This document shows positions 8,863-25,665 of a DNA stretch of 64,000 nucleotides, piece by piece (positions within the stretch are counted from its first letter, which is position 1; every line of letters starts with the position of its first letter). The notes under the pieces were generated by a model. It worked only from the letters and a program-made list of their open reading frames with translations. It made no database searches and was not told the DNA's origin. The translations under genes were made by a program, and so were the position numbers. The stretch is from Bacteroidota bacterium (GTDB lineage: Bacteria; Bacteroidota; Bacteroidia; Bacteroidales; FEN-979): the NCBI GenBank assembly GCA_037134895.1, contig JBAXLI010000013.1:8668-72667 (forward strand), given 5' to 3'.

Positions 8863-9528
8863 ATGAAAACTCTGATCAATTTAATCTTAATCATGGTATG
8901 CCTGGTCCCGGAATCTTTCAGCCAGGTTGATAAAACACAGATGAGCCTGGACGTATCAAAAAAGTACGCTCAAAACATCGGACTGCTGTCACAACTTACA
9001 TGGAAAAGAAAGACCGAAGGGTATGTTGGTGGGAATCTTGCGACAATGTCAGTAAGCTCGGTTACTTTGGGCCCTGATGGCAAAATGCAGGCCATTGTGA
9101 TCAGTCAGCAATCTTACACTGAAAAGAAACGCGGCATAAGGGGAGCTATACAGGCTGGTGTTGTTTCTGACATCAATGCGTATGTAAAGTCTGCCGTTGA
9201 ACTGGTAGGGAAATACATTTTCCTCAGCCAGGGCCAAATGGTTGACCTTTTTAATAAAGGTACTCTTTCAATCCTGGGTAGCTCGCTTCAGGCCGAAGGG
9301 TTCAACCTCCTGGTCCAGGGCGACCATCTCAATTATAAGTTTGACCAGTCAACTCTCCTTTACCAATCTCAGGATATATCGACCGTGCTTGGAGGTGAAG
9401 CGGTGACCGCCAAGGTCCAGTATGAAACGTCGAACGGGGTGAACCGTGTGACTTCAGTGACGATAAACATGGCAGGACCAAAAGTGACAATTAAATTAGT
9501 GAACTTTGAATGGGCCAAAAAAATATAA
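8863..9528 (+). CDS. Secreted hypothetical protein, tandem paralog 1
   Basis: Signal peptide. It is colinear with the next gene and shares blocks such as GQMVDLFNKGTLS and GDHL.Y.FD. Confidence 0.6.
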   Translation: MKTLINLILIMVCLVPESFSQVDKTQMSLDVSKKYAQNIGLLSQLTWKRKTEGYVGGNLATMSVSSVTLGPDGKMQAIVISQQSYTEKKRGIRGAIQAGVVSDINAYVKSAVELVGKYIFLSQGQMVDLFNKGTLSILGSSLQAEGFNLLVQGDHLNYKFDQSTLLYQSQDISTVLGGEAVTAKVQYETSNGVNRVTSVTINMAGPKVTIKLVNFEWAKKI

Positions 9529-9556
9529 TCTGTAACCTAAATTAAATGATATACTT

Positions 9557-10198
9557 ATGAAAAAATTATTCTTATTATCCATTGCAGGCTTTGTTTGTTT
9601 ATCAACCTATGCACAGTTAGACAAAACCAAGTTAAGCCTGGAAGTATCAAAAACCAATGATCATAATATTAAACTTCTTTCTTCTTACACCTGGAAAAGA
9701 ACAATTGAAGGGTTCTCTGAAGGGAACCAGGTTGTTTCAATCCTCAGCTCCGTAACAATGGGGCCTGACGGGAAACCTGTAAACCAGATCATCGAGAAAT
9801 CAGGAGCAGGCCAGAAAAAACCATCAAAAAAACAGGCGGAAGCTGCTGAATACATTAAAAATGCTGTAGAACTTATTGGAAAATATGTTTTTATGTCAAC
9901 AGGCCAGATGGTTGACTTGTTCAACAAAGGGACCTTATCGTTGCTGAATGATAATCTGAATGCCGAAGCATTCAATTTTATCACTAAGGGTGACCATTTA
10001 AAATATTCTTTTGATAAAACTTCATTACAATACAAAGGCCAGGAGATTTCTACTATGCTCAACGGTGAGCCTGTTAAAGCAACGGTTACATTTAAGTTTG
10101 TGGATGATGTGAACACGGTGGACAAGGTTGTACTTGACCTCCCTGCAAAGAAAATCAAGGTCAACATGACCAACACGGATTTTGCAAAGAAGCTCTGA
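9557..10198 (+). CDS. Secreted hypothetical protein, tandem paralog 2
   Basis: Signal peptide. Clear paralog of 8863-9528 (QLDKTKLSLEVSK vs QVDKTQMSLDVSK; KYVFMSTGQMVDLFNKGTLS vs KYIFLSQGQMVDLFNKGTLS). Confidence 0.6.
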   Translation: MKKLFLLSIAGFVCLSTYAQLDKTKLSLEVSKTNDHNIKLLSSYTWKRTIEGFSEGNQVVSILSSVTMGPDGKPVNQIIEKSGAGQKKPSKKQAEAAEYIKNAVELIGKYVFMSTGQMVDLFNKGTLSLLNDNLNAEAFNFITKGDHLKYSFDKTSLQYKGQEISTMLNGEPVKATVTFKFVDDVNTVDKVVLDLPAKKIKVNMTNTDFAKKL

Positions 10199-12951: not shown

Positions 12952-14694
12952 TTAAGTTCCTTTCCGAAGTGTTTTATTTGCGAGTTCGGGATTAATACTT
13001 GAAACAGCTTCAAATTGAGACAGGTGAACTTTGCCTGTAAGCTCATCGAGAAAATGGGAACGCTTTAACAGATCCATCACCGGTCCCTTGACCTCTGAGA
13101 GATGAAAAGTAATTCCTCCGTCTTTGAGCCTGTGATTTATAGCTTCAAGGCTTTCGAGTGCAGAACTGTCGATTGTATTCACTGCCGGACATTCAAGTAT
13201 TATATGGCGGATGGCAGGGTTCGCTGCCACTGAATCGTTAATAAGATCTTCAAGAAAACGGGCATTCGGAAAATACAGGCTTTCGTCTACTCTCAGCGAT
13301 AGTATCTCCGGATCGGTTATCACCGTATGGCGACTAACGTTTCGAAAACTGGTGGTCCCGGGGATCTGACCAACGACTGCAACATGCGGACGGGAGGTTT
13401 TATAAAGGTGGAGTAAAATTGACAGTCCGACTCCCGCAACCAATCCAATTTCAACACCTTCAACCCAGGTCATGAGGATGGTTGCAGCCATTGCTGCAAA
13501 GTCGGTCTTTGAATAAGCAAATGTTTTCTTCAGTGCTTTCAGATCGACCAGTGAAAACACGGCAACGATAATTGTTGAGGCAAGGACTGCTTTAGGAAGA
13601 AAAAAAAGCAAGGGCGTCAGGAACAAGGTGGCAAGAGCTACACCGATCGCAGTATAGGCGCCGGCTGCCGGCGTTTGTGCTCCTGCATCAAAATTAACAA
13701 CTGAACGGGAAAGAGCGCCGGTTACCGGGAAACTTCCTGATATTGATGATCCGACGTCTGAAATTCCGAGAGCGATCATTTCCTGGTTAGGATCGACCCT
13801 TTGCCTGCGCTTGGCAGCGAGAGTCAAAGCAACCGATATAGATTCTACATAACCCACGATGCAAATCAGGAGTGATGGAACAAGAAGTTTGCTCCAGAGC
13901 ACAGGTTCCAAAGGAGGTATTGAAATCTTAGGTAATCCCTTCGGGATAAGCCCAATAATTGCGACACCCTGGCTGGAAAGACCGAAACCCCAAACGGCGA
14001 GTGTTGTAATAAGTATGGCTAATGCCGGTCCCACTTTTGACAGGATATCGGCCAGTTTCTCATTTATTCCTATTCCAAGTAAAAAAGGCTTGAGCCCCTT
14101 TCTCCCCCAGAAAAGGAAGATCAAAGCAGCGAGTCCTATCCCGGCTGTATATGGATTGATCTTAATAAGATTTGGTCCCATCGAGATCAGCAGATCCAAA
14201 AGATTCTCCCCGCTTCCACGGATGCCAAGCAGAGGTGCAAACTGACCAATACCTATCTGCACTGCAGCAGCAGTAATAAAACCTGAAATAACCGGGTGAC
14301 TGAGAAAATTAGCCAGGAAACCCAGGCGCAACACCCCCATCACGATTAGCAAGAGTCCCGTGACCATGCTTAATGCAATCACTGCTCCCAGATATTCAGG
14401 GGTTCCCTGGGTTGCCACAAGCCCTGCAGCAGCCGCTGTCATGAGGCTGGCGACTGCAACAGGACCAACGGCAAGGGCTCGGGATGTACCGAAAATCGCA
14501 TACAGAAGCAAAGGTGCCATTGAAGCATAAAGACCGACTTGTGCCGGCAGCCCAACCAGCATCGCATAAGCCAGGGACTGGGGGATCAGCATGATCGTGA
14601 CGATCACGGCAGCAATCAGATCGCTGACAAGGATCTGCCGGGAATATGAAGCCCCCCAGTCAAAAATCGGAAAATAGCGGCGAAGCAAACGCAT
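12952..14694 (-). CDS. SulP-family inorganic anion (sulfate) transporter with C-terminal STAS domain
   Basis: 580 aa. N-terminal SulP signature region (DLIAAVIVTIMLIPQSLAYAMLVGLP), multiple TM segments and a C-terminal STAS fold (ILSLRVDESLYFPNA...IDSSALESL). Confidence 0.85.
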   Translation of the reverse strand: MRLLRRYFPIFDWGASYSRQILVSDLIAAVIVTIMLIPQSLAYAMLVGLPAQVGLYASMAPLLLYAIFGTSRALAVGPVAVASLMTAAAAGLVATQGTPEYLGAVIALSMVTGLLLIVMGVLRLGFLANFLSHPVISGFITAAAVQIGIGQFAPLLGIRGSGENLLDLLISMGPNLIKINPYTAGIGLAALIFLFWGRKGLKPFLLGIGINEKLADILSKVGPALAILITTLAVWGFGLSSQGVAIIGLIPKGLPKISIPPLEPVLWSKLLVPSLLICIVGYVESISVALTLAAKRRQRVDPNQEMIALGISDVGSSISGSFPVTGALSRSVVNFDAGAQTPAAGAYTAIGVALATLFLTPLLFFLPKAVLASTIIVAVFSLVDLKALKKTFAYSKTDFAAMAATILMTWVEGVEIGLVAGVGLSILLHLYKTSRPHVAVVGQIPGTTSFRNVSRHTVITDPEILSLRVDESLYFPNARFLEDLINDSVAANPAIRHIILECPAVNTIDSSALESLEAINHRLKDGGITFHLSEVKGPVMDLLKRSHFLDELTGKVHLSQFEAVSSINPELANKTLRKGT

Positions 14695-14725: not shown

Positions 14726-16414
14726 TTAATCCTGGCTGCAATGTGAACGTGAAAGCATTCCGCCGGAGATATTCTTTGCTTTGAACCCCTTCTGTAAAAG
14801 GATTCTTGTGGCATAGTAAGCTCTCTGTGCCGAACGGCAGATCACGAGTATTTCACGGTCGCGTGGGAGTTCGCCGATTCGCGAACGGAGCTCTGGCAGC
14901 GGAATGTTTAAGGCTCCGGGAACTGATTCAACAGCCAATTCCTGGGGATTGCGAACATCGAGGAGGAAACCATCGCCCAAATTGTCCCAATGAGTGAGAG
15001 GCATATCACCATTAAGTACATCAACGGCAACCATCCCGGCAAAGTTGACAGGATCTTTTGCGCTTCCGTAAGGTGGTGCATAGCTCAGTTCCGATTCTTC
15101 GAGATCGTAAATTGTACAACCCATCTGAATGGCCATCGCAAATGAATCTATACGTTTGGCAACACCATCCTCCCCAAGCACCTGGGCTCCTAAAAGACGC
15201 CCATTGGATTTCCGGAAGAGTACTTTGATGATGAGCATCTTTGCCCCGGGGTAATATCCGGCATGAGAATTAGGATATAAATATATTTTTTCATAGTCGG
15301 TATCTCCGAGCTGCTTTAGTACTTTTTCGCTTACACCGGTTTGCGAGATCGTTGCATCAAAGATCTGGCAGATTGAAGTCCCCTGGGTCCCGCGATAATG
15401 TGCATTGCGACCGGCAATCACATCAGCGACTATGCGTCCCTGCCGGTTTGCAGGTCCTGCAAGAGGAATAAGCGCCCATTGTCCGGTCACAAAATCCTTT
15501 ACTTCAATAGCATCTCCAACTGCAAAAATATCAGGATCGGAAGTATGCATCTGATCATCCACGCGAATCCCACCCCTTTTACCTATCTCGAGACCGGCAG
15601 ACTTTGCCAGCGCCGTTTCAGGGCGCACACCTATTGCCATGATCACAATATCGGCCGGATGCGCTTTGCCTGATTCTGTTAAAACCTCAAGCGAACCTTT
15701 GGCCGACTTCCTGAATCCGGCAACTCCGTCGTTCAGTTCGACATGAATACCGTGCTTTGTCATATAACGCTCAACCAGTCGCGCCATCTCGCGATCCAGC
15801 GGAGGCATAACCTGGTCGAGCTTCTCTATCAGCGTCACTTCCAGGCCACGGTGGACAAGGTTTTCGGCCATCTCCAGTCCGATGAATCCTCCACCTACCA
15901 CAACTGCACGTTTTGGTTTTGATACCGTATCGATGCCGGAGTATGGGTTCGTGACCTCATTACGGTCTGAATCCCTTTCAAGCCATTCACGTATATGCCT
16001 TGCATCAGGCACAGTCCTCACCGAGAAGATACCCGGAAGATCAATACCGGGCAAGGGAGGACGGATCGGAGCTGCCCCGGGAGAAAGCACGAGTTTGTCA
16101 TATTTTTCTGTACTGACTTCACCTGTAATATGGTTTTTCAACTCTATAGTTTTCTTTTCCGGCGAAATACTGATCGCTTCACAATTCGTTCTGCAGTCTA
16201 TGGCAAACTGGTTCCGAAACAATTGTTCCGTGGCAACCAGGAGAGAAGATTCCTTTTCAATCGAACCGCCAACATGATAAGGCAATCCGCAGTTCGCATA
16301 AGAAACATAGGGTCCGCGTTCCACCATCAGGATTTCGGCCTTTTCATCCAGCCTCCGCAGCCGTGCAGCACAGGAGGCGCCACCTGCTACTCCGCCAACA
16401 ATAATTACTTTCAT
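14726..16414 (-). CDS. CoA-disulfide/persulfide reductase-like flavoprotein fused to a C-terminal rhodanese domain
   Basis: GxGxxG (IIVGGVAGGASCA), redox Cys motif SYANCGLPYHVGG, a second dinucleotide fold (VVVGGGFIGLE), and a C-terminal rhodanese loop ILVICRSAQRAYY. Confidence 0.8.
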   Translation of the reverse strand: MKVIIVGGVAGGASCAARLRRLDEKAEILMVERGPYVSYANCGLPYHVGGSIEKESSLLVATEQLFRNQFAIDCRTNCEAISISPEKKTIELKNHITGEVSTEKYDKLVLSPGAAPIRPPLPGIDLPGIFSVRTVPDARHIREWLERDSDRNEVTNPYSGIDTVSKPKRAVVVGGGFIGLEMAENLVHRGLEVTLIEKLDQVMPPLDREMARLVERYMTKHGIHVELNDGVAGFRKSAKGSLEVLTESGKAHPADIVIMAIGVRPETALAKSAGLEIGKRGGIRVDDQMHTSDPDIFAVGDAIEVKDFVTGQWALIPLAGPANRQGRIVADVIAGRNAHYRGTQGTSICQIFDATISQTGVSEKVLKQLGDTDYEKIYLYPNSHAGYYPGAKMLIIKVLFRKSNGRLLGAQVLGEDGVAKRIDSFAMAIQMGCTIYDLEESELSYAPPYGSAKDPVNFAGMVAVDVLNGDMPLTHWDNLGDGFLLDVRNPQELAVESVPGALNIPLPELRSRIGELPRDREILVICRSAQRAYYATRILLQKGFKAKNISGGMLSRSHCSQD

Positions 16415-17090: not shown

Positions 17091-18053
17091 CTATCCTGCT
17101 GATCCGTCAGTCCGTCCAAAAGCCTCGTCAATCATAACCTGAAAGCGCTGAACAACTTCATTCGAAGGTGTTTTGTAATCGTCAAGTTCGTAAACTACAC
17201 CGAGCGATTCATACTTGCCAAGTCCAAAACGGTGATAGGGCAGCAGTTCATAATCAATCACATTCTTGTGCGGCTTGATAAATTCCAGTACACCCAGGAT
17301 ATGTTCATCATCGGCATTCACACCGGGAATCAAAGGCGTACGGGCAATAAAATCGATGTGAGGAAACGTTTCGTAGGCTTTTTTAAAATTGGCCAGAATA
17401 CGCTCGTTACCTACGCCTGTCCATTTTTTATGCCTTTCGGAATCCATCAATTTCAGGTCGTGAAGCATGGTATCAACATGTGGAAGTACTTTCTCGAGGA
17501 AGGACCAGGGAGCGTTACACGCTGTTTCGACGGCTGTATTGATTCCCCGGCTATGGGCTTCCTGCAGCAAAGCTGCTGCGAAGTCGGGTTGCAGCATAAC
17601 TTCACCTCCGCTTATCGTCATGCCGCCTCCGGTATTGCGATAGAAGGAAGCATCTTTTTCTACTTCTTCCATTACTTCGCCAACCGTCATTGTTTTGCCA
17701 AACATTTCGAGGGCGCCGGTGGGGCAAAGTGAGGTGATTTCTTCCGTAATGCCTTTGGCCAGCTGCCAGTTGACTTTTACCTTTGAATCGTCTCCCTCCA
17801 CAAAATAAAAAGCGCCTTCAGGAAATGGAGACTTAAGGCATATGCTGCATTCTTTTCCTTTGCACTTTTTGGGATCATAAGAAACCTCAGGCTTCATCCC
17901 TATGCTTTCAGGATTGCCGCACCATTTGCAACGCAGGGAACAACCTTTTATGAACACATTTGTGCGGATACCGGGGCCGTCGTGGCTGCAATACCGCTGG
18001 ATATTTAGTACACGGCCTGTTATATCCAATCTGTTATTTGTCTGATTTGTCAT
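17091..18053 (-). CDS. Glycyl-radical enzyme activating protein (radical SAM activase with ferredoxin-like insert)
   Basis: N-terminal GRE-activase fingerprint CSHDGPGIRTNVFIKGCSLRCKWCGNPES (CxxxCxxC). Extra Cys-rich region (KCKGKECSIC ... LCPTGAL). ATG 18053 is preceded by GGAGGG with a 7-nt spacer. The track starts earlier, at 18089. Confidence 0.9.
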   Translation of the reverse strand: MTNQTNNRLDITGRVLNIQRYCSHDGPGIRTNVFIKGCSLRCKWCGNPESIGMKPEVSYDPKKCKGKECSICLKSPFPEGAFYFVEGDDSKVKVNWQLAKGITEEITSLCPTGALEMFGKTMTVGEVMEEVEKDASFYRNTGGGMTISGGEVMLQPDFAAALLQEAHSRGINTAVETACNAPWSFLEKVLPHVDTMLHDLKLMDSERHKKWTGVGNERILANFKKAYETFPHIDFIARTPLIPGVNADDEHILGVLEFIKPHKNVIDYELLPYHRFGLGKYESLGVVYELDDYKTPSNEVVQRFQVMIDEAFGRTDGSAG

Positions 18054-18066
18054 GATTCTTCCCTCC

Positions 18067-19224
18067 TTATTTTCCAAGGTAAATACCAAGTGAATCCGCT
18101 ACCTGGAAAAACATGCTTTCAGAGGGTATCGTTCTTACTTTGTTGATGGCCTCGGCAAGTGGAACGAACTTAATATCCGGAGGAACAAACGCCACCATTA
18201 CCCCGTTTTTACCGGCTTCGAGCGCCTGAATGGCTCCTGCGCCGTAAGCCACACCCAACTGGCGATCGACTGCCGATGGTGCGCCACCCCTGACCCAGGG
18301 GCCGATTACCATTGGAAAAGTTTCTTCGGCTATCCTCAGTTGCAAGCCATCGGCAACTGCCTGTGCTGCCTGGCCTGACTTATGAATAACGAATTCACTA
18401 TTGGAATCACTGGATGCCAAAGGCGATAAAGAAGCTTTGAGAGAGGATACTTTTTCTTCTTGTTTCTTCTGATTCAAAATTTTTGCACCTTGAGCCACTA
18501 CTACCAGGCCCCAGGATTTTTTACCAAGCATTTTATTTTTAAGATGTGTTGCCACATTTTTCAAATCCACCGGAATTTCAGGAATCAGCACTGCATCGGC
18601 AGCAACGGCAATACCGGCCTGTAAGGCAATCCATCCGGCTTCCTCTCCCTGCACTTCGACCACTGCAATTTTATGGGCGGCCTTTGCTGCCAAACGCGCA
18701 CGGTCGAGCATGTCGATAGTAAAAGTAAGCGCCGTGTTGAACCCGAATGACACCGAAGTGGATGCAATTTCATTTTCGATAGAGCGTGGTACGCACACCG
18801 CATTCAATCCTTTTTTGTGAAGCTGGTAAAGAATACTCAGTCCTCTTCCGCCAACTATCGAAATTACAGCATCAATATTTTCTGCTTTTAATTTTACCAG
18901 CAATTCATCCGACATGTCAACTTCCTCCACCATTTCAAGTTCATTGATGGTGCGGACATTGAACGGATCTATCCTGGAAGACTGGCCGAGAACACTGCTT
19001 GTGTTCGGATCCATATTCAATACCCGCGGATCGATTGGAATTAATCCGCCATTGGGGTATTTTTCGGGATGAAGCAAGCCTTCAAATCCATCGCGGATGC
19101 CGACAAGTTCCCATCCCAATTTTCCGGCAGCAAGAGAGGCTCCTGCAACAACGGCATTTATCCCGGGAATGTAGCCGGCGCCTACCATAATGGCAATGCG
19201 TTTTTGTCCTGTATCTGTACTCAT
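18067..19224 (-). CDS. Phosphofructokinase-fold (PfkA family) protein with substituted catalytic residues
   Basis: Colinear with PfkA, but GGDAPGMN is GAGYIPGIN, GGDGS is GGRGL, GTIDND is RSIENE, MGR is QGE and GHxQRGG is GPWVRGG. The comparison is made from memory of E. coli PfkA. Confidence 0.7.
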   Translation of the reverse strand: MSTDTGQKRIAIMVGAGYIPGINAVVAGASLAAGKLGWELVGIRDGFEGLLHPEKYPNGGLIPIDPRVLNMDPNTSSVLGQSSRIDPFNVRTINELEMVEEVDMSDELLVKLKAENIDAVISIVGGRGLSILYQLHKKGLNAVCVPRSIENEIASTSVSFGFNTALTFTIDMLDRARLAAKAAHKIAVVEVQGEEAGWIALQAGIAVAADAVLIPEIPVDLKNVATHLKNKMLGKKSWGLVVVAQGAKILNQKKQEEKVSSLKASLSPLASSDSNSEFVIHKSGQAAQAVADGLQLRIAEETFPMVIGPWVRGGAPSAVDRQLGVAYGAGAIQALEAGKNGVMVAFVPPDIKFVPLAEAINKVRTIPSESMFFQVADSLGIYLGK

Positions 19225-19260
19225 AATTATTTATGATTGATTACTTCTCGTTCTTATGAA

Positions 19261-19293
19261 AAGTAAGGCATGACATATGGTCATGCCTTACTT
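19261..19293 (-). other. Intercistronic perfect 14-bp stem-loop between the GRE and PFK-like genes
   Basis: AAGTAAGGCATGAC, loop ATATG, then GTCATGCCTTACTT. Only a weak U-tract (TTTCAT) follows on the minus strand. Confidence 0.6.
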
Positions 19294-19311: not shown

Positions 19312-21729
19312 CTATTCACAACGCTGCAGGGTACGATCGATGATCTCGTTTTGTACACCTACGTGCAGTTTGGTGAAGAATGCGCTGAAACCGGCAACCC
19401 TGACCACGAGATCGCGGTATTTTTCGGGGTGTTTCTGTGCATCCCTGAGGATTTCGGTGTTCAGTACATTGAACTGGATATGGTATCCACCGTTATCAAA
19501 CAGCGTCTTGACCAGACGCAGCACATTATCCCGGCCTTTGCGGGTATCGAGCTGATCCGGTGGAAGCTTCATGTTCATGTGCGTTGCACAATATGCAACT
19601 GCATCAATTCCTTTTGCTCCAGACATTACCAATGCAGTCGGTCCGTTGACATCGGTGCCCGGCATGGCCGAGATACTTCCGTCGGTGAGCGCCACACCGG
19701 CCTTCTTGCCGTTCGGCAGCGCCCCGGTCACCATACCAAATGGGTTGTGGGCACTCTTGGTATAGGCATCGAGCGAGGTCTTGATGTCCTTGCTGATGTG
19801 GTTACCACCGCCATCCACATTGTTAAATGCATGCAAGATGGTGTTGTAAATCCGGCGGACAAACTTGTTTACTTCAGGGATGTCGTTGCCATGCTTGGGT
19901 GCTTCAAAACACATCTTCCCTATTTTAGCATATTCTCCCTCGAAGTTGGCAGCCAGGGCTTTTTTTAGTTCGGCCATAGTCACCTTCTTGTCGTCGTACA
20001 CCAGTTTCTTCACTGCCATCAGCGAGTTGGCCGCATCCACGCCTCCGATGGAGATCTGGGCAACCGTGTAGTAGTTGGCCCCGCCCTCCCAGACCTCTTT
20101 ACCGGTCTCGAGGCATCCGCCGGTCAGGACGGAGCGCCAGGCGCAAGGGAGGAAATCTGCCTGAAGGATGCTTGCAATCCAGGCTGAACGACGAAGCGTG
20201 TCCTCGCAGGCTTGAAGTTGCTTCTCGAATGCGGTATATAGTTCTTCGAAGCTTTTGAAGCTCTCAGGATCCCCGCTCTTGGGTCCTATCTGCTTCTTGG
20301 TGCGGGGATCGAAGCCGTTGTTCATCGTCAACTCGATGATCTTGCCGAGGTTGGGTTGGCCCTCCACCGGGTGACCAGTCTCATAAGGGATGTAGCTTCC
20401 CACACAGGCTCCGACGCAAGTACGTCGGGCTTTCTCTAACGGGAGATAACCATTCCTTTCGGTCCAGCCCCAAAGGTTCAGGGCCCGCTTCAACATCACT
20501 TCGGCATTCACGAACTGAGGCATGCCCATACCAGTACCTATAACATCGAGTACTTTTTCCAGGAATTTGCCGCTCATCTGCTCTGTATAGGCACACGAAA
20601 GCGGAGGTTGCGGCAGAGCGAGATAGGCTGCTGAATCCAGAATCACGTAGTCCATTTCGGCAGTGGCATCTTCACCATTCCCGGTATAACCGCCGAGGGT
20701 GATGCTCTGTCCCAGATCGGCGGAGTTCTGCTTAGCGATTCTCTCGCCATAGTAGTAGCCGATTTCATTCAGCTTGATGGAGAGATTCTGGAACATGTAG
20801 ACAGCATCGTCATAAGTAACAAGCCCGGCGGCCTTGTCGGCCTGATAGAATGGCTCCAGATTCTGTCCCAGGAAGGCTTCAGAGTACCCGCAGCCGATCT
20901 GCTCGAGTTCTGCCACGAGGTGACTGAAGAAGTGACTTTGGATTGCCTCCCTCAGATTCCGGGCAGGATGCTCGGGAACCCATTCGCAGGTTTCTGCAAT
21001 CGCGATCAACTCGGCTTTCCGGGCTTCATTTTTCTCTTTAGCAGCCATCTCCCTTGCCAACCCGGCATAACGATGGGCAAACCGGATCGCTGCTCTCATC
21101 ACGATGAGGGTTCCCTCATAGAAGTAGAACTTGGACATGTTTGGCATACGCATCTCGAGAGCCATCTGCCGTTCCTCTACCTCCTTGATTATGCTGGCAA
21201 GCCCCTCCCGGTAAACCCGCGGGTAGTTAAGATTGCCACCGCCGGCCGGCCAGTCAGAGAACGATCCAAAAAGGCCGGCGTCGGTAGATAGCTTTGGGTC
21301 GTATCCATATCGCTTCTGAAAAATCTCGTCGACCCGGGGTTTCATCGCACGTTTGCCCCAGTAGTCGAGCGCCCACTGGTTGGCCTTCTTATCTTCCGGA
21401 GTCGGCGACTTTTCTACCGTATTCTCTTCTATCATCCAATCCACCTGCCATTCGGGATAGGGGTACATGGCATTGGTCTTGCCGGCCATGGCGCCGACAA
21501 AGAGGTTGTCGTCGATATACAGTTTCTTACGATCCAGAACGGCTGCCAGGAATTTGGCACGTCGGAGTACCTGGTTATCTCCAGTGGTTTCCCCATAGAC
21601 ATCATGCATGATCCTAACCCGCTCGAAGTCGAGTTCAGGCTCCGTGCTCCTGAGTTGTTCTTTCAGCCGGTCGATACGCTTCGTATCGGTGTTGACCTTT
21701 GCTGTGAAAATGTTGCTTTCATTTGTCAT
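19312..21729 (-). CDS. Glycyl radical enzyme (PFL-fold), unassigned subfamily
   Basis: 805 aa from ATG 21729, with AGGAG 8 nt upstream. C-terminal fingerprint VVRVAGFSAFFTK. Candidate thiyl Cys in RRTCVGACVGSYIPYE. N-terminal IDRLKEQL...RAKFLAAVL...LYIDDNLFVG is typical of non-PFL GREs. The track ORF begins 32 codons earlier (21825). Confidence 0.9.
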   Translation of the reverse strand: MTNESNIFTAKVNTDTKRIDRLKEQLRSTEPELDFERVRIMHDVYGETTGDNQVLRRAKFLAAVLDRKKLYIDDNLFVGAMAGKTNAMYPYPEWQVDWMIEENTVEKSPTPEDKKANQWALDYWGKRAMKPRVDEIFQKRYGYDPKLSTDAGLFGSFSDWPAGGGNLNYPRVYREGLASIIKEVEERQMALEMRMPNMSKFYFYEGTLIVMRAAIRFAHRYAGLAREMAAKEKNEARKAELIAIAETCEWVPEHPARNLREAIQSHFFSHLVAELEQIGCGYSEAFLGQNLEPFYQADKAAGLVTYDDAVYMFQNLSIKLNEIGYYYGERIAKQNSADLGQSITLGGYTGNGEDATAEMDYVILDSAAYLALPQPPLSCAYTEQMSGKFLEKVLDVIGTGMGMPQFVNAEVMLKRALNLWGWTERNGYLPLEKARRTCVGACVGSYIPYETGHPVEGQPNLGKIIELTMNNGFDPRTKKQIGPKSGDPESFKSFEELYTAFEKQLQACEDTLRRSAWIASILQADFLPCAWRSVLTGGCLETGKEVWEGGANYYTVAQISIGGVDAANSLMAVKKLVYDDKKVTMAELKKALAANFEGEYAKIGKMCFEAPKHGNDIPEVNKFVRRIYNTILHAFNNVDGGGNHISKDIKTSLDAYTKSAHNPFGMVTGALPNGKKAGVALTDGSISAMPGTDVNGPTALVMSGAKGIDAVAYCATHMNMKLPPDQLDTRKGRDNVLRLVKTLFDNGGYHIQFNVLNTEILRDAQKHPEKYRDLVVRVAGFSAFFTKLHVGVQNEIIDRTLQRCE

Positions 21730-21805: not shown

Positions 21806-22345
21806 TCATCTGAGCAATTCTTCAAAATGGATGGCTGTTTGAGCCTGTTTCTCCAGAAGAGTATTTAATTCATTGGCCGTTCTGATCCGCCTTGCAACAA
21901 CCTCGGTCAACCCTTTACGGAAACTCTGGATGGTGTATTTGAAATTATTTTGATCGAAAATTTCGCACTTTACTATATGATCGGTTGGATTATCGCTTTC
22001 CTGTTTACATTCGTGACATGCCCCGTAAAGAGTTGTTATTTCATCTTTAACCGTCTGTGAAGTCCACGTGATCTCTCCATAACCTCCGAATTCATTGTGC
22101 CATAACTGGACCCACCTGCGGAGATCACAGCGCCAGCCTGAAATGGCTACCTGTATAGTATCGTCGATAACTCCTTCCCCCACAGGGACAATCAATCCAG
22201 GTTCGGTTCCCAGGGATGAAAATGTTCCCTGTGTTTTCGGCCAGTTGAAAACAACCTCACGCTGAAATTCCCCGTTTTTGGTAAGTTTGGCAATCCAGCT
22301 TCCCCCAAAAAAGTCACGAAATAATTTTGCCGTTAATTCAGCCAT
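21806..22345 (-). CDS. Hypothetical 179-aa protein with four Cys, first gene of the GRE operon
   Basis: Best start is MAELTAKLF at 22345; the track ORF extends to 22486 across the promoter region. Cys are at residues 73, 110, 113 and 127 (GACHEC). I recognise no family. Confidence 0.5.
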   Translation of the reverse strand: MAELTAKLFRDFFGGSWIAKLTKNGEFQREVVFNWPKTQGTFSSLGTEPGLIVPVGEGVIDDTIQVAISGWRCDLRRWVQLWHNEFGGYGEITWTSQTVKDEITTLYGACHECKQESDNPTDHIVKCEIFDQNNFKYTIQSFRKGLTEVVARRIRTANELNTLLEKQAQTAIHFEELLR

Positions 22346-24444: not shown

Positions 24445-25665
24445 CTATCCAATCCGCATTCCAGATGCCAAAGGATCTGCTGCCTGTGGAAGTTTCGATG
24501 TAGTCCTCTTCTTCCATTCATCTTCCAGCAGTTCCCTGGCAGCCTGTTCCAGGAATTCGGGTGCGGACCATTTTCGCACATCGAAATTGTTCTTAATGTA
24601 ACCGTGACTCAGCATGAAGTCCTTCCCTATCTCAACTGAAACCAGGTTCTGCGATGACAGGTTCGGCACCATATCGACAAGCCTGATCCCTTCATAGGTA
24701 TCTTCAACATCACGATAGAAGGTCTGTTTGTCCAGGATGGCTGCTGCAGCATGTTTGTGCTCATTGGCCCAGCGCCCGACTTTGATCATGCCTTTCAGGA
24801 AGGCAACAGCTAATTCAGGGTGCTTTTCTGCCATAACATCGCTGCAGGTGATGGCAGCAGGGATATTGGCCACCTGCAAGGTCCAGTCAGGATACCTCGA
24901 GAGGTCTTCAATGGATTTAAATTTTCCTGTTGTTTCGGAGAGTATACTAAGCACCTTGCTCTGGCTGTACATGGCATCGATTACTCCTTTTTCAAGAGCT
25001 GTTTCCAATGGGCGGAATGCCAGGTCATGTTTATGATCGCGGCGAAGCCATAATTCTGACGGATTTTCCATTTCAGGGCCCATCATTTCAGGTATGTCAT
25101 ACCAATCATCCGGATAAGGGAATTCAACGATCTGAACATCATTCCTTGTCATACCATTTACTCTCAGCATCAGCTCGATTCCCTGCTCTTCCTGGATGCC
25201 CCACCAGTCGGTCTTTATTTTATTCTGGCTCCTGGATAAACCTATCTTTTTACCTTTCAGGTCAGCCATGCGGTATATATCGTCCCTTGAGCGTACGATC
25301 ATCACTCCGCCTTCTTTTGGCACATGTGTCACTCCTAAAAGCCTGGTTCTGCGAATATCTGCCTGTACGTGAATCGGAGGGAACAAGCCGCCAAAGCGGA
25401 TAATATTATCCATATTATGTATGTAGTGAGGATACCAGTCGTTTTCTTTGCGAGCCCGCAGATAAAGGTACTTCACATCCATCTTCTTATATATTTCCTT
25501 GGTCCAGCCCAGTTCCTGGTCTACATTGCTTGCTGAAACCAGCGGACAATTAGTGTAATAAACCTCATTCCAATCCAGCGGCACTGTTTTGAGTTTGCCT
25601 GCCTTTTTCGCATTGGCAATAATTTCTTCCATGGTCGGAGCCGTTCTTGTTGTTTCGTTTGCCAT
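24445..25665 (-). CDS. Cytoplasmic NMT1/SsuA-fold protein resembling DszB (2'-hydroxybiphenyl-2-sulfinate desulfinase)
   Basis: No signal peptide. Blocks match my recollection of Rhodococcus DszB: YTNCP vs YSNCP (catalytic Cys), HYIHNMDNIIRFGG vs HFTYDQPAYTRFGG (His...Arg with the same spacing), RTRLLGVT vs RTRLLGIT, ADLKGKKIGLS vs ADLAGRRIGVS, and WSAPEFL vs WAAPEFL. Confidence 0.6.
   Translation of the reverse strand: MANETTRTAPTMEEIIANAKKAGKLKTVPLDWNEVYYTNCPLVSASNVDQELGWTKEIYKKMDVKYLYLRARKENDWYPHYIHNMDNIIRFGGLFPPIHVQADIRRTRLLGVTHVPKEGGVMIVRSRDDIYRMADLKGKKIGLSRSQNKIKTDWWGIQEEQGIELMLRVNGMTRNDVQIVEFPYPDDWYDIPEMMGPEMENPSELWLRRDHKHDLAFRPLETALEKGVIDAMYSQSKVLSILSETTGKFKSIEDLSRYPDWTLQVANIPAAITCSDVMAEKHPELAVAFLKGMIKVGRWANEHKHAAAAILDKQTFYRDVEDTYEGIRLVDMVPNLSSQNLVSVEIGKDFMLSHGYIKNNFDVRKWSAPEFLEQAARELLEDEWKKRTTSKLPQAADPLASGMRIG

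Follow-up and report, generated by a model that had tools for sequence, protein, structure and literature searches.

A phosphofructokinase-fold protein with a remodelled catalytic site as a candidate partner of a glycyl radical enzyme activase

Why should a gene with the fold of a glycolytic kinase lie between a glycyl radical enzyme (GRE) and the enzyme that activates it? The question is raised by a 64-kb stretch of contig JBAXLI010000013.1 (assembly GCA_037134895.1), from a Bacteroidota bacterium of the Bacteroidales lineage FEN-979, which we call the window. Its minus strand carries a series of genes encoding, in order, a 179-aa protein, a GRE, a phosphofructokinase (PFK)-like protein, a GRE activase, a 155-aa protein, a CoA-disulfide-reductase/rhodanese fusion and a SulP transporter. 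The PFK-like gene (18067–19224, minus strand) has an ATG start and a product of 385 aa, and an earlier note on this DNA had assigned it to the GRE system. Our analysis bears out that assignment, placing the gene as an integral, co-transcribed member. We favour, with evenly balanced confidence, the reading that its product is a non-kinase protein of the PFK fold that would serve as a dedicated partner of the radical S-adenosylmethionine (SAM) activase that installs the glycyl radical. By this reading the protein would no longer be a Mg-ATP- or pyrophosphate (PPi)-dependent sugar kinase.

The PFK-like protein matches the Pfam family PF00365 at 198.7 bits (cut-off 30.9), with profile positions 1–277 covered. 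An AlphaFold2 (AF2) model built on 54 sequences reached a predicted local distance difference test (pLDDT) score of 86.7 and a predicted template modelling (pTM) score of 0.85. Foldseek matched this model to the PFKs of B. subtilis, B. stearothermophilus and E. coli (4a3s, 1mto and 1pfk) with target-normalised template modelling (TM) scores of 0.90–0.92, so that model and search together give the two-domain PFK fold; the likeness to PfkA recognized earlier by eye is thereby confirmed. Curated PFK identity was not reached: all 11 NCBIfam PFK models scored under their cut-offs, the best being TIGR02483 at 234.7 against 430.55.

We compared the active-site motifs using phmmer against PFKs of the Protein Data Bank (PDB) and a MAFFT alignment with E. 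coli PfkA taken from NC_000913.3; residues carry the numbering of the literature. The PfkA motifs GGDAPGMNA, IGGDGS and PGTIDND correspond to GAGYIPGINA, IVGGRG and PRSIENE in the window protein. MGR reads QGE, as had been reported for Arg171, and GHIQRGG aligns with GPWVRGG, which bears out the loss of His249 and the retention of Arg252. Site by site, Gly11, Arg72 (as Arg84), Asn128 and Arg252 are kept. Conservative changes replace Thr125 with Ser, Asp127 and Asp129 with Glu, Arg162 with Lys (Lys185) and Glu222 with Gln (Gln245), while Gly104 and Gly124 have become Arg and Ser105 has become Gly. Lost outright are Asp103 (to Gly), Arg171 (to Glu), Arg243 (to Phe, Phe303) and His249 (to Pro). 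A computed alignment might have brought the catalytic Asp and Arg residues back as conserved; with Asp103, Arg171, Arg243 and His249 all lost, it did not.

The Mg2+ and phosphoryl-donor motif GGD(103)G/D is broken, Asp103 being Gly in the window and Gly, Asn or Ala clade-wide. The earlier note had placed an Arg at this position; its loss of Asp stands, but its register does not, as Asp103 pairs with Gly126 and Gly104 with Arg127. The catalytic loop T125-I-D127-N-D129 reads S-I-E-N-E in the window and S-I-E-N-D in the clade consensus. The double replacement of Asp127 and Asp129 by Glu, also claimed earlier, thus holds for the window protein, but Glu129 is confined to a Bacteroidales subset: Asp129 is kept as Asp in 34 of 52 genes of the activase-adjacent 'slot' type, to which the window gene belongs, and in all 30 genes of the type linked to iron–sulfur (Fe-S) proteins described below. 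Within the set that holds the phosphate of fructose-6-phosphate (162, 171, 243, 249 and 252), the residues are Lys, Glu, Phe, Pro and Arg, and only Arg252 is unchanged. These alignments support assigning the product as a protein of the PFK fold whose catalytic site has been remodelled, with the loss of key kinase residues.

Such a pattern could reflect a decaying gene. We searched 1.84 billion cluster representatives (50%-identity clusters) for homologues and found the degenerate pattern only in the closest ones, at 65%, 50%, 47% and down to ~39% identity. The farther representatives that we tabulated (~30–40% identity) are nearly all canonical, with GGDxPGLNA, GGDG[ST], PKTIDND, MGR and GH[LIV]QRGG. 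Because the closest representatives are degenerate and nearly all farther ones canonical, the substitutions are not the product of chance or decay. The ratio of nonsynonymous to synonymous substitution rates (dN/dS) against close relatives is 0.06–0.09. Judged by sequence comparison, the gene is not decaying and belongs to a strongly constrained clade. Near-invariant in this clade are Ser125, Glu127, Asn128, Lys162, Arg252, a basic or polar residue at 104 and Arg or Lys at 124. The clade has also gained invariants of its own, notably Cys144 (equivalent to Gly121 of E. coli PfkA): every subclade has Cys at this position, where the canonical PFKs examined have Gly.

A further departure from PfkA lies between E222 and H249, where a Ser-rich insertion of ~45 aa had been described. 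An extra loop is present, but neither its size nor its novelty held up, since it largely elaborates a loop of the closest canonical PFKs. The segment measures 28 aa in E. coli, 48–56 aa in canonical relatives and 65 aa in the window protein, which makes the insert ~37 aa relative to E. coli and ~10–17 aa longer than in the nearest canonical PFKs. Within it, residues 256–281 (18382–18459, minus strand) are predicted to be disordered (pLDDT < 50) and carry LKASLSP. The motif L[KR]A[SR]LSP is kept even in distant clade members that are only 40–50% identical.

We next asked which gene the PFK-like gene accompanies. Scanning one genome per GTDB species yielded 76 loci at 59–92% identity from at least 10 phyla, with carriers in Bacteroidota, Ignavibacteriota, Acidobacteriota, Verrucomicrobiota, Desulfobacterota, Chloroflexota, Actinomycetota, Nitrospirota, Gemmatimonadota, Proteobacteria and Kiritimatiellia. 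The carriers are chiefly metagenome-assembled genomes from soils, sediments and lakes; one is a cultured isolate, Lutimonas halocynthiae CECT 8444 (L066). A GRE of the window type is present in 71 of the 76 loci and an activase in 73. Across these loci, 112 of 115 evaluable PFK-like genes have an activase or Fe-S protein gene no more than 250 nt downstream, whereas ~60 metagenomic loci of canonical PFKs have no GRE or activase nearby. The clade is thus not a known active PFK subtype found mostly outside GRE loci, an outcome against which the earlier note had warned.

Spacing ties the PFK-like gene to the activase more closely than to the GRE. At 63 junctions between the PFK-like gene and an activase gene, the median distance from stop to start is 11 nt; in 19 of them the genes overlap by 4 nt, and no gap exceeds 42 nt. 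Where an Fe-S protein gene follows instead, the median is 21 nt. By comparison, the gap from the GRE to the PFK-like gene has a median of 106 nt (range 60–355) and is 87 nt in the window. In the window, the PFK-like stop precedes the activase ATG by 13 nt, as first noted from the sequence, and we read this spacer directly as GGAGGGAAGAATC (18054–18066, minus strand), which is Shine-Dalgarno-like. It includes GGAGG, a strong site just 5' of the activase start. Strong Shine-Dalgarno-like sites are unusual in Bacteroidota, and this one would fit either translational coupling or a foreign origin.

The GRE-to-PFK-like spacer has a different character. In the window it contains a terminator- or attenuator-like hairpin, GUAAGGCAUGAC-CAUAU-GUCAUGCCUUAC followed by UUUU (19259–19291, minus strand), with a minimum free energy of -28.5 kcal/mol (z -5.1). 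Spacers at this position are strongly structured in 68 of 71 related loci (median z -4.9), and no Rfam family matches the hairpin. Directly 3' of the GRE stop, its arms AAGGCATGnC...GnCATGCCTT are conserved in the window and in loci L001–L064. A terminator-like hairpin after the GRE suggests that the PFK-like/activase unit is expressed less strongly than the GRE, as activases usually are. By gene layout, then, the PFK-like gene and the activase form one tight, translationally coupled unit downstream of the GRE hairpin.

The pairing is also portable. In loci with an HpsG-like GRE (852–992 bits against NF048011, cut-off 1000), degenerate PFK-like proteins at ~50% identity lie ahead of an HpsH-like activase; we found distant members through a metagenome scan seeded by a four-sequence alignment. 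Some of these loci (L080 and L081) have the HpsG-like GRE, the PFK-like gene and the activase adjacent to one another. Others place an SDR gene (L159 and L161) or four genes (L162) between the GRE and the PFK-like/activase pair, and in one (L160) the pair comes after a gene for a Psr-like molybdoenzyme, and no GRE lies closer than 7 kb. Mirror-tree comparison over 22 loci gave a correlation of 0.93 between PFK-like protein and activase distances against 0.27 between PFK-like protein and GRE distances, with partial correlations of 0.92 and 0.02. One read-through fusion of PFK-like protein and activase was seen (P0447). We did not accept this fusion, or one joining a GRE C-terminus to a PFK-like protein (P0207), as Rosetta-stone cases, since both may be read-through or assembly artefacts. 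Tight spacing, the hairpin after the GRE, portability and co-variation together make it more likely, on genomic grounds, that the partner of the PFK-like protein is the activase than the GRE. Of the earlier proposal that the protein is a non-catalytic scaffold or regulatory subunit of the GRE, the non-catalytic part fits well, and the choice of the GRE as partner is not supported.

Many loci carry one or two extra PFK-like paralogues, each followed by a gene for an Fe-S protein of 377–395 aa. These Fe-S partners begin with a helical segment, continue through a Cys-rich middle and end in a 2x[4Fe-4S] ferredoxin domain; they match no named family and have ~900 homologues. In a neighbour-joining tree the PFK-like proteins split cleanly by context into three groups, the activase-adjacent slot group and two Fe-S-linked groups. 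We considered whether the Fe-S partner is homologous to the activase and rejected this, having found no similarity beyond the ferredoxin domain. In one relative (L001, 12158–17221), the activase is followed by a 91-aa ferredoxin, two PFK-like/Fe-S pairs and a SAM synthetase; no such set of ferredoxin, PFK-like/Fe-S pairs and SAM synthetase occurs in the 64-kb window. Another locus (L077) carries a 152-aa open reading frame (9347–9805) consisting of the C-terminal glycyl-radical domain alone, in the manner of a GrcA-like 'spare part'. It lies upstream of one PFK-like/Fe-S pair and one PFK-like/activase pair, and may be either a truncation or an autonomous radical domain.

How might such a partnership work? 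We propose that the PFK-like protein would form a stoichiometric complex with the activase, probably docking on its ferredoxin-like Fe-S domain, which we single out because it is the sole feature that the activase shares with the partners of the paralogues. Once bound, the protein could stabilize the activase, gate it at the step of electron delivery or radical installation, or do both. The former kinase cleft would be a binding site for an anionic ligand or a thiol-based control site: a conserved, basic, Cys-bearing cleft implies that it still binds something, and makes a gating or sensing role plausible. The paralogues would pair likewise with ferredoxin-domain Fe-S proteins, and the system as a whole would constitute an organosulfur-linked GRE pathway. 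A broader version, which we put forward tentatively and hold to be rather less than an even prospect, is that a PFK-fold family has been converted into obligate partners of Fe-S and radical-SAM proteins, its cleft sensing an anionic metabolite or acting as a thiol switch that decides between radical installation and quenching.

Several observations weigh against a dedicated activase partner. The co-variation of adjacent genes can reflect linkage instead of contact, and the P0447 contig is error-prone, its activase itself being frameshifted. The Fe-S partners belong to no family of known function, and their AF2 model (pLDDT 57.5) is too poor for a structure search. The B. wadsworthia 2,3-dihydroxypropane-1-sulfonate (DHPS) paper describes a four-gene hpsGH cluster and mentions no kinase, so a PFK-like partner is seemingly no general need of an HpsH-type activase. 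Finally, the conservation of the cleft (Glu127, Asn128, Asp129, Arg72, Lys162, Arg252 and Cys144) would also fit an enzyme with new chemistry. The earlier note had offered just this choice, between a kinase with new chemistry and a non-catalytic scaffold or regulator. The second fits better, since the protein lacks the Asp103 that binds Mg and three residues that bind phosphate, and we keep the first as a rival. In that rival the protein would be a true enzyme acting on a pathway metabolite, either as a phosphotransferase whose donor or acceptor is unusual or through a Cys144-dependent sulfur or sulfonate activity, and its adjacency to the activase would reflect co-regulation only. A near-invariant cleft (Ser125, Glu127, Asn128, Asp129 in most members, Arg72, Lys162, Arg252, basic residues at 104 and 124, and Cys144) would suit it, as would sulfur-rich surroundings of DszB-like, rhodanese, CoA-disulfide-reductase–rhodanese, SulP and SBF transporter genes. 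However, the Mg ligand Asp103 is lost, the catalytic base is Glu in most members, and Arg171, Arg243 and His249 are gone. Occurrence with two GRE classes that have different neighbours, and in up to three paralogues per locus each tied to an Fe-S protein, is hard to square with a single substrate, and overlapping stop and start codons suggest a complex. We regard this enzyme as unlikely.

Partnership with other components can be weighed in the same light. The PFK-like protein might be a stoichiometric beta-type subunit of the GRE, like BSS beta/gamma or HPAD gamma, that gates the substrate channel or the glycyl radical domain. Three GREs are known to have accessory subunits, the gene sits between GRE and activase in the window and in most loci, and the protein is highly conserved along with the system. 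Yet the ~100-nt spacer and its terminator-like hairpin imply expression below the GRE, HpsG-type loci have intervening genes or no nearby GRE while the activase is invariably the next gene, there is no co-variation with GRE distances, and the paralogues pair with Fe-S proteins and not with GREs; we consider a GRE subunit quite improbable. Alternatively, the protein could be the adaptor of a dedicated reductant-delivery chain in which PFK-like/Fe-S pairs and a small ferredoxin feed low-potential electrons to the activase cluster, with docking or gating that is possibly nucleotide-driven. This overlaps with an activase partner but gives the PFK-like protein a redox role. It would account for relatives in which the activase is directly followed by a 91-aa ferredoxin and one or two PFK-like/Fe-S pairs, frequently with a SAM synthetase behind them, for Fe-S genes directly 3' of the activase in several loci, and for the loss of one auxiliary cluster in many of the activases here. 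But Fe-S pairs are out of reach in the window and in many other loci, which contain nothing of the system beyond GRE, PFK-like protein and activase. Nor does the protein, its ATP/Mg ligands gone, show an evident flavin or nucleotide site, and the Fe-S protein family is without known function. Such a chain, too, seems to us an unlikely explanation. That the gene is an ordinary glycolytic PFK caught in the operon by accident has next to no chance of being right: its homologues are auto-annotated as '6-phosphofructokinase', but every curated PFK cut-off is missed, key residues are lost, and the near-universal association with activase or Fe-S genes has no counterpart among canonical PFKs. We also rejected chance adjacency, on the motif tables and context counts, and a role like that of sulfofructose kinase, because sugar-pathway genes are absent from the locus and the protein has lost the donor-site Asp.

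The preferred reading, a non-kinase partner of the activase, can be set beside known systems. The closest relatives outside the clade, at 33–39% identity, are 'mixed-substrate' ATP/PPi PFKs of the TIGR02483 type (PKTIDND, GGDG, MGR, GHLQRGG), which share the fold and domain order, the basic residue at 124 and a long E222–H249 loop. Unlike them, the window protein has no Asp103, Arg171, Arg243 or His249, and has Glu for Asp127, Lys for Arg162 and an invariant Cys at 121; its clade stands near activase or Fe-S genes (the 112 of 115 above), and we saw no member in a glycolytic context. In plant PPi-PFK the regulatory alpha subunit, and in eukaryotic PFK the C-terminal half, are non-catalytic modules of the PFK fold. 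These are precedents for losing catalysis and becoming a regulatory or ligand-binding partner, but they regulate a PFK catalytic module, whereas here the partner would be an activase or Fe-S protein and the locus holds no catalytic PFK.

Among GREs, a June 2026 review lists accessory subunits for only three, HPAD, BSS and MASS, all HiPIP- or rubredoxin-like and binding the GRE, and names no kinase-like component (PMC13450708). Like the PFK-like protein, BSS beta/gamma, HPAD gamma and MASS beta/gamma/delta are extra proteins encoded in GRE operons, and they modulate radical installation or stability (PMC13450708). The PFK-like protein differs: it has the PFK fold over 385 aa, lacks a cluster motif, has a single conserved Cys and is linked genetically to the activase; it does not qualify as a small HiPIP/rubredoxin-like four-Cys subunit. 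The HpsG/HpsH DHPS sulfite-lyase system offers another comparison. The window activase is HpsH-like (343 bits, cut-off 430), and sister PFK-like/activase pairs accompany near-equivalog HpsG GREs (982–992 bits, cut-off 1000) in environmental genomes, but the window GRE scores only 417 bits against the HpsG model and is without the CXE glutamate and the Arg/Gln/Arg sulfonate triad. In the literature searched, including the June 2026 GRE review (PMC13450708), no PFK-like protein is reported with a GRE or activase, in keeping with the earlier remark that neither a kinase nor a scaffold of this fold was known in GRE loci. Within the limits of that literature, the PFK-like/activase association is undescribed.

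The GRE itself (19312–21729, minus strand, 805 aa) has its real start at the ATG at 21729. It belongs to the superfamily by its PFL-like (PF02901, 470 bits) and Gly_radical (PF01228, 97 bits) domains, the motif RVAGFSAFF and Cys442. It fell under all NCBIfam equivalog cut-offs, and its best PDB match is HypD at 383 bits. The Cys loop reads G-A-C442-V-G-S and lacks the glutamate of CXE, a motif that the literature defines as common to GRE eliminases and isomerases; 44 of 48 clade members have Gly in place of that Glu. We therefore rejected an HpsG/IslA-type sulfonate lyase, there being neither the CXE Glu nor the Arg/Gln/Arg triad. With its C-V-G loop, without Arg/Gln/Arg and below every curated GRE equivalog, the window GRE therefore belongs to an uncharacterised class. 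A conserved F-x-D-W-P-G-G-G-G stands in this class at the sulfonate-binding Arg/Gln site of HpsG. GREs of the window type are 60–86% identical across at least 10 phyla, and their similarity follows neither taxonomy nor the PFK-like/activase tree: compared with one Bacteroidales GRE, those of Methylobacter and Burkholderiales are 85–86% identical and that of the window 76%. This mismatch suggests lateral transfer or recombination at the GRE-to-PFK-like spacer.

The activase (17091–18053, minus strand, 320 aa) is an HpsH-like, GRE-activating radical-SAM enzyme, identified by TIGR02494 at 316.9 bits (cut-off 174.35), by NF048010 at 343 bits (cut-off 430) and by a map of its cysteines, which places CX3CX2C at C38/C42/C45. 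Its ferredoxin-like insert has only four Cys (C64, C69, C72 and C110), predicted to suffice for one auxiliary [4Fe-4S] cluster and not two; across related activases the Cys count of this segment varies from 4 to 8.

Neighbouring genes recur along with the system. A DszB-like (sulfinate desulfinase-like) cytoplasmic protein (24445–25665, minus strand) matches DszB in the PDB (2de2, E 3.5e-11; SsuA-fold), with YSNCPV aligned to the catalytic-Cys motif YTNCPL. Such a gene lies near the system in at least 27 related loci and hints at sulfinate chemistry. Pfam and NCBIfam identify the flavoprotein at 14726–16414 (minus strand) as CoA-disulfide- or persulfide-reductase-like with a C-terminal rhodanese domain, and it is paired with a SulP-family anion transporter at 12952–14694 (minus strand; TIGR00815, 408.5 bits). 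The reductase–rhodanese fusion occurs in 38 related loci and an SBF-family transporter in 34; SulP, rhodanese and SAM synthetase are further recurrent neighbours. The reductase–SulP pair accompanies the system in many genomes, on either flank, and suggests persulfide, sulfite or thiosulfate handling. The 179-aa protein (21806–22345, minus strand; start confirmed) is conserved immediately 5' of the GRE and matches no Pfam or NCBIfam family; it is found in 22 loci, all Bacteroidales-type, and could be another accessory component. Gene context in general suggests that the pathway served by this GRE system lies in organosulfur chemistry. A weak Rfam match to the Vibrio antisense RNA AS7 inside the reductase gene (16240–16395, plus strand; 28 bits against a gathering threshold of 90) is almost certainly chance.

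What would a dedicated partner mean for GREs? Their activases are often insoluble and hard to reconstitute (GRE review), making them the practical bottleneck of GRE biochemistry. A natural partner could explain why some activases fail alone, and could be used to make them work. The question is open to experiment in the cultured carrier Lutimonas halocynthiae CECT 8444, and the locus flags an abundant, cross-phylum and uncharacterised class of GRE linked to sulfur genes in soils and sediments. If our reading is right, it would add a new case in which the fold of a central-metabolism enzyme is reused as a non-catalytic or re-purposed subunit. Were the cleft also to sense a metabolite, for example sulfite, a sulfonate or pyrophosphate, it would be a new layer of control over GRE activation in an organosulfur GRE system that is widespread in soil, sediment and freshwater.

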